Shown here: positions 1 to 15,428 of the stretch, in pieces
Layout: the number at the start of each line of letters is the position of its first letter
Numbering within the stretch: position 1 is the stretch's first letter
IMG/VR virus record: IMGVR_UViG_2778261504_000013
Span: 1 to 15,428 of that record
Strand: one strand, 5' to 3'
Length of the DNA stretch: 15,428 bases
From: a virus
Lineage: Duplodnaviria; Heunggongvirae; Uroviricota; Caudoviricetes
Translations under genes and position numbers: made by a program
Notes under the pieces: model-generated
Databases searched by the model: none
Seen by the model: only the letters and a program-made list of their open reading frames with translations
What the model was told of the DNA's origin: nothing

Positions 1-896
<896 letters not shown>

Positions 897-1539
897 CGAA
901 AGTATCTTAGCGGGCATGAAAATGGCAAATAACGGTCAAACATCGTGGCGTTGACACCGAAGCTGTAACTGAACCATTCTCTGATTTTGTCCATACGGTA
1001 CATGCTCTACCCATTCATTGAGGGGATTTGCTCTATTTAATTAGGAATAAGGTCGATTACTGATAGAACAAATCCAGGATACTGTGTTTAGTAATCAGAT
1101 TTGTTCGTGACCGATATGCACGGGCAAAACGGCGTGAGGTTGTTAGCGCAACCTCCTGCCACCCGCTTTCACGAAGGTCATGTGTAGAAGGCCGCAGCGT
1201 AACTATCACTGATGAATTCAGGACAGCCAGTGGCTACGGCTCAGTTTGGGTTGTGCTGTTGCTGGGCGGCGATGACGCCTGTACGCATTTGGTGATCCGG
1301 TTCTGCTTCCGGTATTCGCTTAATTCAGCACAACGATAAGAGCACTCAGTGCATTTAAGCCAAGCCCCATAAGGGAGAATGCTCTTACCTGTTGTGCAGA
1401 CAAAAAACCGCACGGCGGCGGGTTTAAGCTGTGTGGCGAAGTTACCCATCTTTACCAAGTATTCGGTAATAAAATAACTTGTGGTGTTCTCATTTTTATG
1501 CCGATAAAATAAACGGTCCACTTTCAAATGGAGCGATTC

Positions 1540-2460
1540 ATGATTTTTCTCAGAACTGAAAACGGCATCGAGAAACTTGAAAACTGGGAGAAAATTATAT
1601 CCAGACCAAACTTTGTCACCACTATAGACAAAGGAGTTCAACAACTTGAGGAGATAATTGGTTACTACAAATTTAAAGAAGAAATCCACTGTGGTCTAAC
1701 TGGTTGCAACCAACCACATCAAATGGGTTATATTGTAAAAACATCTAGTGGCATTGAAACCAACATCGGAAATAAATGTGGTAAAAACGAATTTGGTGTG
1801 GAATTTGGTGAAAACGTTCTTAGTTTCAATAAATTTATGCAACTCGAAACCAATCGGGAAATTATTAGCACCGCAAAAAGTAAATGTGAAGAGTGGCAAA
1901 AAAATATTGAAACGATACGAAATATCAAACCCACAATAGATTATCTATCTTCTACCATCGAAAATAGTAAAAATTCCAATTACTCCGGAAGACTTGGTGC
2001 TACAGAAATTCGTTTTTTGACCAAGAGCCAGACAGGCCTTGTAACCCTTTCTGAAGTGGAAACTGATAAGAATACCAAAACAATTCTGTTCGCAATGAAT
2101 GAACACATGCGCGAGTCTGGAGAGGCAATAAGTGAATTCTACATAGGAAAAGTATCATTTAGTCATGTTCTTTTACCAGAAAACAATCTTCGTGATTTTT
2201 TTGTTGCGCTCAAAGAAGATCTAAAAAAAATTCAGTGTATTGATCTACAAACAGCCCCAAGCCCAGAAATTTCTAATGTTGCCAAAATTGCCAGTTCAAT
2301 CGAAGAACGAATCAAGCGATTAAAAAAACTGAAACATGAAGCCAGTAAATTCCTAACTAAAAAAAATCTGCGTCCCATCGCAAACAAAATAAAATACTCA
2401 TCGACAGCGGATGAACTTGAATTCCATAATTTCGAACGCTTTTTAAAAGGGCTGAAATGA
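1540..2460 (+). CDS. Hypothetical protein, AT-rich orphan gene (about 306-310 aa), function unknown
   Basis: Long ORF of clearly lower GC than its flanks; GGAG lies 6 nt upstream of ATG 1540 (the alternative ATG 1528 has no SD); followed by a hairpin terminator. Contains a Cys/His cluster (HCGLTGCNQPHQ ... NKCGKNEFG). I recognise no family. Confidence 0.65.
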   Translation: MIFLRTENGIEKLENWEKIISRPNFVTTIDKGVQQLEEIIGYYKFKEEIHCGLTGCNQPHQMGYIVKTSSGIETNIGNKCGKNEFGVEFGENVLSFNKFMQLETNREIISTAKSKCEEWQKNIETIRNIKPTIDYLSSTIENSKNSNYSGRLGATEIRFLTKSQTGLVTLSEVETDKNTKTILFAMNEHMRESGEAISEFYIGKVSFSHVLLPENNLRDFFVALKEDLKKIQCIDLQTAPSPEISNVAKIASSIEERIKRLKKLKHEASKFLTKKNLRPIANKIKYSSTADELEFHNFERFLKGLK

Positions 2461-2461
2461 T

Positions 2462-2484
2462 AAAAGCCCCGAAAGGGGCTTCTA
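2462..2484. terminator. Bidirectional intrinsic terminator between the convergent orphan gene and Q
   Basis: Stem 2464-2470 (AAGCCCC) pairs with 2475-2481 (GGGGCTT) around a GAAA tetraloop; U-rich flank is better on the minus-strand side (TTTTA), so it may act as the terminator downstream of Q. Confidence 0.6.
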
Positions 2485-2574
2485 TCAAAATCATTTACGC
2501 ATTATTCCGCATGCTTAAAAGCATACATGACAGATTCGGACAAAATCAAGTGCAATGTCGCAAAAACCCTAAGC

Positions 2575-3405
2575 TTAGTTCACATCATCACCAAAACTTG
2601 TCACATTCTGAAAAGCAATATCGGCCTTACGCTCTTCCTGGTGGCAAATGTCAACCAGAGAATCAAGAAACGGCTTCCAATTACGCGTCCATGTCCTGAC
2701 ATGTAGCTCGGGTATCCGCTTCAGTACAACTTTATATACTGTGGTAGACGGTACCGTGGAAAATCCATTTCCGCTGCAACGTTCGCAGATTTTAAACACT
2801 GGCACACCACGCTCGCTTGTGGCTTTGCGGTCCAGTACCTCTCCCTTTCCACCACAACGACACCTGGCACTTATCACTCCCTTCCCTTTACATACATCGC
2901 AAACGACTGGTACAACTTCCGTTACCTCTGTCCATTTCTCCCAGTCTGACGGTCGAACAGCACGGGAGCGACTGGCCCAATATGGTGCTTTACCCCATGG
3001 GTATGAAACCTTACGAATGACCTGCTTACGGGGTGTTAGTCCGGTACCACTGCAACTATGGCATGTTACGCTGGTGTCTGCCGATCGGGAATACTCAGCA
3101 AAAGCAAACTGCGCCAGTACCAGCATACACCAGCCAAATTCACCACCAGCTGCTTTACGCACATTCTTCGGTGCAATTTCCATCGCGTGACGCGCCAGCG
3201 CCTGGACTGCCATCTGCTCATCAGTCTTGCTGATACCGGCCTTCCCGAAGAAGGCCGCCAAGCCAAACCGCTCACGATTGCTGGTGGTACCAATAGCCGC
3301 CATAACATCGGTGCCTGTAAGACGTTCCGGAGAGGTTCCTTTCACATCGTCGCCGATATACATTCCCTGAGGACTGAAGTATTTTAGCGATGCCTCAAGC
3401 TTCAT
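2575..3405 (-). CDS. Late antiterminator Q-like protein with four DnaJ-type CxxCxGxG zinc-finger repeats
   Basis: CHSCSGTG, CDVCKGKG, CRCGGKG and CERCSGNG repeats; last gene of the cro-side operon (the lambda Q position); start overlaps the upstream stop (TAATG). The family assignment is from memory of Q proteins of the Qin/phage 82 type and is not search-verified. Confidence 0.7.
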   Translation of the reverse strand: MKLEASLKYFSPQGMYIGDDVKGTSPERLTGTDVMAAIGTTSNRERFGLAAFFGKAGISKTDEQMAVQALARHAMEIAPKNVRKAAGGEFGWCMLVLAQFAFAEYSRSADTSVTCHSCSGTGLTPRKQVIRKVSYPWGKAPYWASRSRAVRPSDWEKWTEVTEVVPVVCDVCKGKGVISARCRCGGKGEVLDRKATSERGVPVFKICERCSGNGFSTVPSTTVYKVVLKRIPELHVRTWTRNWKPFLDSLVDICHQEERKADIAFQNVTSFGDDVN

Positions 3406-4262
3406 TATTCACACTCCCCAACCAGATTAAGAATAACCGCCGCGCCATTGTCTTTCATATATTCGCCCTTTCCGCTTGCCAAAAACCAACGACACACCTC
3501 CACGGCTTCAGCCCGTGTCACCGGTTTGATGGTCATCAGCAATTTTTCAAGGTAGCGCTCGCGGTCATATACCGATTCGTGATGCTCAGAGTAACCATAC
3601 TCATCGCCCTGTTCTTTAGACGCAGTGTGGCGAACACTGTAGAGCCAGTCCCAGTAAACAAACTCACGAACTACGTCTGACAATGTATGAGGCTCTGGCA
3701 GTACATCACGATAGCCATCAACATATGCACGACGCTGATCATCAATTTCATTCATACGGATGCCATCAATTCTGCCCGCTGTCTTCTCGGCTGCAGTCCA
3801 GCCCCAGAGATGATCGTCGATAAATTTCTGGGAAGACTGGATCACTCGCTCGGCTTCCACATCTTCGAGTGCTGCTTCATAGCTACCAAACGTAGCCCTG
3901 ACTGATGTTGCTTTTTTGATATTCTCCCGGGCGATCCTGATTGCCTGTGCCGGGTTATCCATGCCGATGGTACCGAAAGCAATCTGGAAAGGATCACCAC
4001 CATTCGCCAGCAGATAACGCGAATAGCGTTCCTGGGCCTCTTTTGGGGAAATTTTAATTTTCACCAGCGCAGCCTCAGCAGCATCCAGATGTGCGGGTTC
4101 GTTCAGACGGATAACCTCCAGCACCCAAAGATAAGCATCAGTCTGCTTATGCCCGGTGATTCTCCGTTGCTCTGGCAGGGGCTTGATGTTTGCGAGGGCG
4201 GAGCTGTACGCTGCCGTCGGGATGGTGAATAGTGCTTTATGTTCGTTGTTATCAGTACGCAT
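3405..4262 (-). CDS. Hypothetical phage protein (285 aa), in the nin-like position between primase and Q
   Basis: Translationally coupled at both ends (TAATG overlaps at 4260-4264 and 3403-3407); no recognisable motif. Confidence 0.65.
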   Translation of the reverse strand: MRTDNNEHKALFTIPTAAYSSALANIKPLPEQRRITGHKQTDAYLWVLEVIRLNEPAHLDAAEAALVKIKISPKEAQERYSRYLLANGGDPFQIAFGTIGMDNPAQAIRIARENIKKATSVRATFGSYEAALEDVEAERVIQSSQKFIDDHLWGWTAAEKTAGRIDGIRMNEIDDQRRAYVDGYRDVLPEPHTLSDVVREFVYWDWLYSVRHTASKEQGDEYGYSEHHESVYDRERYLEKLLMTIKPVTRAEAVEVCRWFLASGKGEYMKDNGAAVILNLVGECE

Positions 4263-14709: not shown

Positions 14710-15300
14710 TTATTCTGTCGCGCCACCTATCGAAACATAATCATGAAATTGATCGTCAATGAGTCGGTCCTTACAGATAACATGTACAATGTGACGACAA
14801 CAGTTTTCATCATCATACGCACGACCCCAGCGAACAATCTCATCTACAGACAGATCATTCGCACTCCATGGCAAAGTACCTGAAACACCACGCGCACCTG
14901 GACCAAGTATGTCCATAAATTTCTTCGTGCGTGAATTGTAGATCCGTACCTCGGCAATTCGAATGATGCTACTAGCCCAAAGAGCACCACCGGCAATACT
15001 TTGAATGTTATCGCAGATGAGAAACTCATGCTTTCGCGCAAGCATTTTATAGATCTCACGCGCCAAACCTGCTGATTGGAAATCCTGTGCGATAACAGCG
15101 CTTTTCACTTGCTTTCCGGTCATCATCTGACCGTTCTCTTCGATAAAATTAAAGTCGTTGAACTGTATACGACCTATTCTTATCGTTTTGTTATCGTCTA
15201 CCATATCAAGACCCAAGAGGGTATTGACCAGATCCTGCATTGGAACCTTCGAATCAAGAAGGTCACTGCCATAGTCTAAAAAAAGTCGTCGGTGGAACAT
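14710..15300 (-). CDS. Hypothetical protein (196 aa), AT-rich, convergent with int; function unknown
   Basis: Complete ORF (in-frame stop 11 codons upstream of the ATG), no strong SD; no motif I can assign; lies at the att-proximal edge of the prophage or in flanking DNA. Confidence 0.6.
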   Translation of the reverse strand: MFHRRLFLDYGSDLLDSKVPMQDLVNTLLGLDMVDDNKTIRIGRIQFNDFNFIEENGQMMTGKQVKSAVIAQDFQSAGLAREIYKMLARKHEFLICDNIQSIAGGALWASSIIRIAEVRIYNSRTKKFMDILGPGARGVSGTLPWSANDLSVDEIVRWGRAYDDENCCRHIVHVICKDRLIDDQFHDYVSIGGATE

Positions 15301-15428
15301 CCCAGTTGATACACATCCAAGTAGTACTGAAACTCACCAGAACTGACAATGGGTGATGCTGCCAACTTACTGATTTAGTGTATGATGGTGTTTTTGAGGT
15401 GCTCCAGTGGCTTCTGTTTCTATCAGCT

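Follow-up and report, generated by a model that had tools for sequence, protein, structure and literature searches.

A conserved gene family lying antisense beside Q in lambdoid prophages: probable mobile cargo and a candidate exclusion or defence factor

BstA, the single-protein abortive-infection factor encoded by the prophage of Salmonella phage BTP1 (PMC8585504), is the described system closest to the gene considered here, which occupies positions 1540..2460 (+ strand) of the virus record IMGVR_UViG_2778261504_000013. The window that we analysed is the whole contig of 15,428 bp, from Escherichia coli, and holds part of a lambdoid prophage in which the gene lies antisense to the late operon and converges on the antitermination gene Q. 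Like the 306-aa protein of this gene and its relatives, BstA (~307 aa) is encoded by a solo prophage gene and consists of a small N-terminal, putatively nucleic-acid-binding domain and a helical C-terminal domain, and its slot downstream of cI is the one taken by those members of the family that adjoin repressors. The two differ in that the N-terminal domain is KilA-N in BstA whereas in the family it carries a CCHC cluster and is weakly chromodomain-like, and in that BstA is co-oriented with cI whereas the family gene is antisense. Sequence and profile comparison shows no similarity between them (hhalign probability 0.2%), the PADLOC model for BstA, which detects BstA itself at 1.9e-124 (positive control), matches no family member, and Pfam finds no KilA-N domain. 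Membership in BstA was rejected on these grounds. Tai and HepS are likewise different proteins, set apart from the family by their descriptions.

The second point of comparison is the lambdoid morons and exclusion genes (rexAB, sieB, bor, lom, and stx in the slot between Q and S), which resemble the family gene in patchy presence, deviant base composition and use of canonical cargo slots. Antisense morons are known in the Q-S slot, for example nmpC in DLP12. The gene of the window is absent from a related ST3 prophage that shares the spacer at 957-1407, and its base composition differs from that of its flanks; a promoter of its own, another moron trait, is in this case predicted only. The sequences are unrelated, several lambdoid morons are membrane or secreted proteins whereas the family protein appears to be cytoplasmic, and stx is co-oriented with the late operon and Q-dependent whereas the family gene runs antisense to it. 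Overall, comparison across loci supports a reading of the gene as mobile accessory cargo at the Q-lysis junction. As its most likely role we favor that of an exclusion or defence factor, to which we assign a probability of about 0.4.

The gene, its protein and its family

The open reading frame (ORF) of 1528..2460 (+ strand), reported in the first-pass annotation as a 310-aa gene, is real, but its start has to be moved. All 22 aligned homologues start MI[FI], the ATG at 1528 is overlapped by the GGAG of 1530-1533, and the RefSeq annotation has 306 aa; we therefore take ATG 1540 as the true start. The gene and the signals around it are:

1482..1510, + strand: predicted sigma-70 promoter of the gene, with -35 TGGTGT (1482-1487), a 17-nt spacer and -10 TAAAAT (1505-1510)
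1530..1533, + strand: Shine-Dalgarno sequence GGAG, 6 nt before ATG 1540, read from the sequence and kept in the upstream alignment
1540..2460, + strand: coding sequence (CDS) of the 306-aa family protein (WP_097426555.1), based on homologue alignment, RefSeq, an AlphaFold2 (AF2) model and the ratio of nonsynonymous to synonymous substitutions (dN/dS)
1690..1779, + strand: codons of the putative zinc ligands C51 (1690-1692), C56 (1705-1707), H60 (1717-1719) and C80 (1777-1779), invariant in alignments A1, A4 and A6
2455..2487, - strand: GC-rich hairpin with U-tract, the putative tR' of a short late leader, based on folding and positional conservation; the U-tract overlaps the last codon and stop of the gene
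2520..2549, - strand: late-promoter-like element (putative pR'), with TTGATT (2549-2544), 18 nt and TATGCT (2525-2520), and a conserved TTTGTCCGAA box in the spacer
2575..3405, - strand: 276-aa Q antitermination protein, which converges on the gene (Pfam PF03589, E 2.6e-52; RefSeq annotation of collinear prophages)

Profile searches and alignments identify the gene as a member of a large, uncharacterised family with CCHC zinc-finger-like residues that is borne by mobile elements, and for which all database names read "hypothetical protein". It had been described as fitting no family. This holds for NCBIfam, for Pfam (best score 12.7 bits against a cut-off of 25; ten distant members are also without a match) and for PADLOC, but the protein matches PHROG 7003 over its full length (ORF residues 5-310 against profile positions 1-309 of 309, E 2.1e-110, 370 bits), a group without assigned function that covers only part of the wider family of ~1,000 clusters. 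Full-length close homologues number 102 and come from Escherichia, Salmonella, Enterobacter, Citrobacter, Pectobacterium, Serratia, Providencia and Leclercia. When 1.84 billion cluster representatives were searched with a profile, 998 family clusters at 50% identity emerged (568 of them below 1e-10); among the best 150 of these 998 most are ~280-340 aa long, and the shorter ones match the N-terminal part only. The family is spread across Gamma- and Betaproteobacteria on prophages and plasmids, and includes members from environmental Alteromonas, Halomonadaceae, Burkholderiales and Pseudomonas. Genomes were scanned for members with alignment A1, the broad alignment A4 being too divergent for this purpose.

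Conservation is concentrated in residues 1 to ~95, the remainder being variable. Eight residues (Y43, C51, C56, H60, G63, G77, C80 and G81) do not vary among 50 sequences with identities as low as 18%; these include all four of the Cys/His cluster that had been noticed from the single sequence. The AF2 model (mean pLDDT, the predicted local distance difference test score, 92) has an N-terminal beta domain containing the CCHC residues (1-86), followed by long helices with a small beta insert (87-306). The four residues are modelled on a strand, a loop and a helix N-terminus of a confident domain, and the N-terminal domain probably binds zinc through them. No transmembrane or hydrophobic segment and no signal peptide was detected (maximum Kyte-Doolittle hydropathy 0.73), so the protein is predicted to be cytoplasmic and soluble. 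Its C-terminal part is basic (isoelectric point 9.8), and outside the CCHC cluster not one acidic or histidine residue is invariant; since there is no conserved catalytic constellation, the protein is most likely a binder of nucleic acid or protein rather than an enzyme. Whole-protein structural neighbours were found neither in the PDB nor in BFVD, where Foldseek returned nothing at E <= 0.001, and searches of PDB sequences with the full-length and N-domain profiles gave nothing useful. A search for domain fusions with the N-domain profile recovered fragments only. The N-terminal domain weakly resembles a chromodomain, or an SH3-like beta-barrel with a C-terminal helix; the CCHC cluster was traced to none of these matches, and the resemblance is one of fold and does not imply homology or a common function.

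The substitution pattern indicates that the gene is under strong purifying selection. Compared with homologues of 76-85% identity, dN/dS is 0.08-0.10, with domain values (omega) of 0.03-0.07 for the N-terminal and 0.02-0.12 for the C-terminal domain. Together with the full length of the gene, these values show it to be neither a chance ORF in AT-rich DNA nor a pseudogene fragment of some larger gene. Such an origin could be suggested by the low GC content noted at the outset (35.3% against 48.4% in the rest of the window; 0.33-0.37 along the ORF against ~0.5 on either side) and by the copy in phage phi467 (LN997803, L109:5001-5875), which is split by a frameshift or sequencing error and annotated as two overlapping ORFs. 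It is refuted by the dN/dS values, the 102 full-length homologues and 998 clusters, the consistent length of ~300 aa and the confident AF2 model, and we give it next to no weight. All chromosomal copies of the gene in Stx2f prophages are intact.

Transcription signals between the gene and Q

The hairpin at 2455-2487 had been read as the gene's own terminator, a reading that our analysis bears out at best in part. The - strand RNA of the hairpin, which ends in UUUUAUCAUUU, has a folding energy of -26.7 kcal/mol (z -5.1), whereas that of the + strand is -18.8 kcal/mol (z -3.4) and the + strand RNA has no T-run or U-run. Its position, mostly 1-10 nt past the stop codon, is kept in 13 of 16 Q-side loci while its sequence varies, and in 12 of these 13 hairpins it is the - strand that has the richer T-run. 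Approximately 50 nt upstream of it on the - strand, and directly downstream of Q, lies the promoter-like element, whose parts (cTTGAy, TTTGTCCGAA..TGTC.TG and TATGCT) are common to 11 loci. In the established lambdoid layout Q is followed by pR'/qut, then tR' and the late genes. By analogy we interpret the element at 2520..2549 as pR'; and the - strand U-tract, the stronger - strand fold and the pR'-like element upstream all point to the hairpin being the tR' of the late operon, at most bidirectional.

For the gene itself, a sigma-70 promoter is predicted at 1482..1510. The upstream DNA of 13 homologues is alignable only at the ribosome-binding site and at the -10 hexamer, and a TAAAAT/TATAAT hexamer ~30 nt before the ATG is present in all 13, down to 39% protein identity. 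Closer homologues have a TGGTGA-like -35 placed 17 nt before the -10; in the window the -35 is weak, and a generic promoter consensus scan stays below threshold at this site.

Given the placement of pR' and tR' next to the gene's stop, Q-modified RNA polymerase would have to cross the whole gene antisense in order to reach the late genes. In intact relatives the late genes beyond the family gene are a holin gene (KC-Dl-1) or stxA2f/stxB2f, tRNAs and a holin gene (Stx2f prophages and phage phi467). We propose that the gene's own sigma-70 promoter drives its transcription in the lysogen, where tR' would halt the constitutive pR' transcript just before the gene. Upon induction, Q-modified polymerase would read through tR' and on, antisense across the gene, to the stx or lysis genes, and this late transcription should switch the gene off.

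Genomic contexts and candidate roles

Family members stand out from their surroundings. In each of 48 loci their GC content is 4-20 points lower than in the flanks. Of 55 loci, 46 have a convergent right neighbour, and in 29 the gene is antisense to both neighbours (~8% would be expected from the background orientation rate). Members of the Q-side clade are solo genes. Head-on placement against major phage operons is a conserved and unusual feature of the family. Homologues recur at the same locus in prophages of many genera (in Serratia and Pectobacterium prophages, for example, Q is followed by the antisense family gene and then by a holin or lysozyme gene), and the contexts outside this locus are other prophage positions, plasmids and genomic islands, not housekeeping regions. 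The earlier suggestion of accessory cargo at the Q-lysis junction is borne out by this low GC content, by the antisense orientation, by patchy presence, by the unrelated types of Q next to the gene and by the other cargo that relatives have in this slot, namely stx2f or stx2, tRNAs, HicB-like proteins, DUF3800/PDC-M04A and nucleases.

We envisage a self-contained mobile cassette of roughly 1408-2490, with its own promoter and one CDS, inserted antisense immediately downstream of the tR' of the lambdoid prophage. The left boundary is placed at ~1402-1408 because homology to the E. coli ST3 prophage stops at 1407 and homology to Stx2f prophages begins at 1402; GC content falls from ~1400 on. A hairpin at 1405-1426, perfect in two relatives, is not significant in the window (z -0.25 and -1.4).

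The main rival to an exclusion or defence role is a regulatory one, in which the protein would be dedicated to controlling the late transcription or the induction of its own prophage. It would damp read-through from Q/pR' and the leakage of Stx or lysis functions, or set the timing of lysis, with convergent transcription perhaps adding a collision barrier. In 17 of 21 non-redundant viral loci the gene follows directly after Q/pR'/tR', the right neighbours being 10 Q genes of the PF03589 type and 7 of the unrelated DUF1133/PF06530 type (the other four are an S24 repressor, an integrase, a lectin-like protein and one protein without Pfam match). A scan of 5,426 complete E. coli genomes found the long Q type of the window in 41, and 38 of these carry a family member: 16 have the 306-aa allele and 22 a paralogue of 314 aa (25% identity, E 7e-27). 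Where the allele changes, the C-terminal ~60 residues of Q and the pR' region change with it, with a recombination breakpoint at window position 2762. A zinc finger with helices and a basic C-terminal part resembles a DNA or RNA binder, and strongly purifying selection without diversification also suits a regulator. On the other hand, alleles as similar as 72% (L035 and L040) adjoin PF03589-type and DUF1133-type Q genes, three of the 41 genomes have the same Q type and lack the gene, and members occur beside repressors and integrases, in Alteromonas islands and on 21 plasmids with no Q nearby. The consistent AT-richness of the gene relative to its flanks also speaks for cargo, and we rank mobile cargo above a dedicated late-gene regulator, which we consider rather unlikely, if the strongest of the alternatives.

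The 314-aa paralogue is found in this antisense slot too, with Q on one side and either tRNA-Arg/stxA2 or tRNAs plus lysis genes on the other (L112:3749-4693 in E. coli STEC308; L114:4001-4945). O157 strains are among its carriers. STEC308 additionally has an IS2 inserted in stx2.

In Stx2f and some Stx2 prophages the family gene lies between Q and stx, and literature searches for a description of this Q-stx spacer gene of Stx2f prophages found nothing relevant. Presence in the prophages of Shiga toxin-producing E. coli, in the same slot as stx2f and stx2, could suggest a host-directed lysogenic-conversion or virulence factor similar to other morons of the Q-S slot (Stx and the porins Lc and NmpC). 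This seems improbable for a protein with neither signal peptide nor membrane segment, hence cytoplasmic, whose relatives are common in environmental Alteromonas, Halomonadaceae, Burkholderiales and Pseudomonas.

The plasmid-borne members raise another alternative, namely that the protein counters host immunity, or aids establishment, when a mobile element enters a new cell. It looks like a non-enzymatic binder, it is found in prophages and plasmids of many genera, and the plasmids include conjugative and mobilizable ones. Against such a function stand the sigma-70-like own promoter and an orientation in prophages that is antisense to the late operon in some and convergent on the cI operon in others, from which expression is predicted in the lysogen rather than early after entry. 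On a conjugative plasmid of Vibrio vulnificus the gene lies amid HicAB, Hok, MazF and a GIY-YIG nuclease, with ParA in the same region; this is a region of partition and addiction genes, which also argues against an entry function. We regard an anti-defence or establishment factor as a good deal less probable than a late-gene regulator, and somewhat more probable than a conversion factor.

An orphan toxin, or one half of an addiction module, might be suspected given that toxin-antitoxin genes are frequent neighbours, as in the Vibrio plasmid and in Burkholderia phage phi644-2, where the gene adjoins a PF05016 (RelE/ParE-family)-HTH (helix-turn-helix) gene pair, and that in the repressor-side clade a gene for a protein of 74-104 aa converges on and overlaps the family gene. 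Neither the window nor any Q-side locus has this small partner, or any other conserved one; no toxin-like catalytic motif is present, neither Pfam nor PADLOC finds a toxin domain, and 16 complete E. coli genomes retain the gene on its own. A toxin is therefore as improbable, in our judgement, as a conversion factor.

We return to an exclusion or defence factor, the role that we favor. The protein would protect the lysogen, or the element that carries it, from competing phages and mobile elements, acting as a superinfection-exclusion or abortive-infection-type factor. The site after Q/tR', where 17 of 21 non-redundant viral loci have the gene, is a classical slot for exclusion and cargo genes, and toxin-antitoxin genes are neighbours in phi644-2 and on the Vibrio plasmid. 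Some members adjoin S24/cI-type repressors, the position of rexAB and BstA; others lie in islands of Alteromonas, Pseudomonas and Burkholderiales, including ones with a type I restriction enzyme and AbiJ nearby, and the PADLOC candidates PDC-M04A and PDC-S33 are among the neighbours of some members. Several results weigh against this role. None of the 5,027 models of PADLOC-DB 2.0.0, including candidate families from defence islands, matches the protein at E <= 10. Many defence proteins have an effector-like or enzymatic domain and also show domain shuffling; neither was found here, and the per-domain omega values give no sign of diversifying selection in the variable domain. Two RefSeq accessions of near-identical prophage copies and three peptide strings from the protein were looked up in the supplements of DefensePredictor, and none of them is there. 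Furthermore, the association with Q and pR' in 38 of 41 E. coli genomes of this Q type suits late-gene control equally well, and a Burkholderia plasmid on which the gene adjoins a TraI relaxase fits anti-defence too. PADLOC searches with four distant representatives and two phage-encoded homologues gave nothing significant (one weak CARF_HEPN match, E 0.0015), and neither full-text literature searches nor the DefensePredictor supplements yielded a published functional test of the family. The earlier label of a toxin or anti-phage gene is thus a hypothetical, if reasonable, one.

A bolder version would have the family be a new kind of zinc-dependent single-protein immunity factor, silenced at induction by antisense late transcription as a built-in self-immunity, with the head-on layout modulating toxin in Stx2f and some Stx2 phages. 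This whole combination is unlikely, falling between a late-gene regulator and an anti-defence factor in our estimate.

The surroundings of the gene and implications

The remaining features of the window near the gene are:

1..956, + strand: 3' part of an IS21-family insertion sequence (IS) element; homology to thousands of E. coli records ends near 956, and the contig begins inside the IS
96..896, + strand: istB, the IS21 ATPase gene (Pfam IstB_IS21, E 2.5e-90)
957..1003, - strand: start (47 nt) of a holin gene that the IS21 end interrupts, from alignment to L087 (holin CDS there 2844-3047, - strand)
1004..1407, - strand: late-operon spacer between Q and holin, common to prophages without the gene; an ordinary spacer
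3405-4262, - strand: 285-aa protein between Q and the toprim primase, without Pfam match; hypothetical, kept in all collinear prophages

The gene had been described as wedged between an IS21 element and a truncated prophage. An IS21 element with istB is indeed present, but it ends at ~956, and the holin remnant and spacer up to 1407 intervene (window 957-1407 aligns with L087 3001-3452, from the E. coli ST3 prophage without the family gene). The junction of IS21 and holin at 956/957 is certainly real, IS21 interrupting the holin gene. Truncation of the prophage is unproven: the contig ends in repeats on both sides, inside IS21 on the left (1-956) and with an IS3-family match on the right (14710-15428), and the apparent truncation may be an assembly break.

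Convergence of the gene on Q, also stated earlier, is confirmed by the PF03589 match at 2575..3405 (- strand). This Q is long at 276 aa and contains a DnaJ-type CXXCXGXG zinc-finger-like stretch. Beyond the 285-aa protein, a Pfam scan of the window places a toprim/zinc-ribbon primase and a DEAD-box helicase on the strand opposite to the gene. Rfam and tRNA scans of the window gave no matches. Three further ORFs, unannotated in collinear RefSeq prophages, were set aside as spurious: 2457..2699 (+ strand), which overlaps pR' and Q, and 1234..1689 and 1696..1934 (- strand), which overlap the gene.

The small protein of the repressor-side clade is conserved and convergent with the family gene, the two 3' ends overlapping by 4-45 nt. 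It carries the motif N-x-C-[DE]-G-Y ... W-x-x-L-P, is matched by neither Pfam nor PADLOC, occurs in Enterobacteriaceae, Gilliamella, Pseudomonas and Halomonadaceae, and may be a functional partner of the family members beside which it lies. Its loci, with eight more, are:

L048:4379-4666, - strand: small convergent protein
L061:6911-7177, - strand: small convergent protein
L062:6911-7147, - strand: small convergent protein
L075:6364-6663, - strand: small convergent protein
L083:6862-7095, - strand: small convergent protein
L105:10865-11092, - strand: small convergent protein
L003:5597-5833, - strand: small convergent protein

In the last of these, from Klebsiella phage ST13-OXA48phi12.2, an annotated 144-aa CDS (L003:5639-6073, + strand) overlaps the small - strand ORF (E 3.7e-11 to the small-protein profile) and is probably a mis-annotation.

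Other prophages have extra cargo that separates the family gene from the lysis genes or lies close by (L038:5400-5813, L043:4832-5635, L040:4933-5784 and L075:3217-4317). It includes an Endonuclease_NS protein and proteins that we tentatively read as HicB-like, DUF3800 (PDC-M04A) and RelA/SpoT-like (PDC-S33). Confirmation by Pfam extends only to Endonuclease_NS, seen in the collinear prophage L007 of Pectobacterium, and confirmation by PADLOC only to the two PDC matches. The right neighbour in two viral contigs of Pseudomonas type (L080:7019-7819 and L081:7019-7819) is a B_lectin-domain protein that reads as resembling a lectin-like bacteriocin.

If the exclusion or defence role is correct, the family would be a sizeable addition, of ~1,000 clusters at 50% identity, to the immune repertoire borne by prophages, and one without a relative in the structure libraries searched and missed by PADLOC-DB 2.0.0, a homology-based defence catalogue. 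Whatever its function, a conserved, lysogen-oriented gene placed head-on between pR'/tR' and the late genes makes the idea that cargo is shut off by antisense transcription testable. In Stx2f and some Stx2 prophages, Q-dependent transcription would cross an antisense gene of ~1 kb before it reaches the toxin genes, and this could be relevant to how toxin expression varies from one phage type to another.

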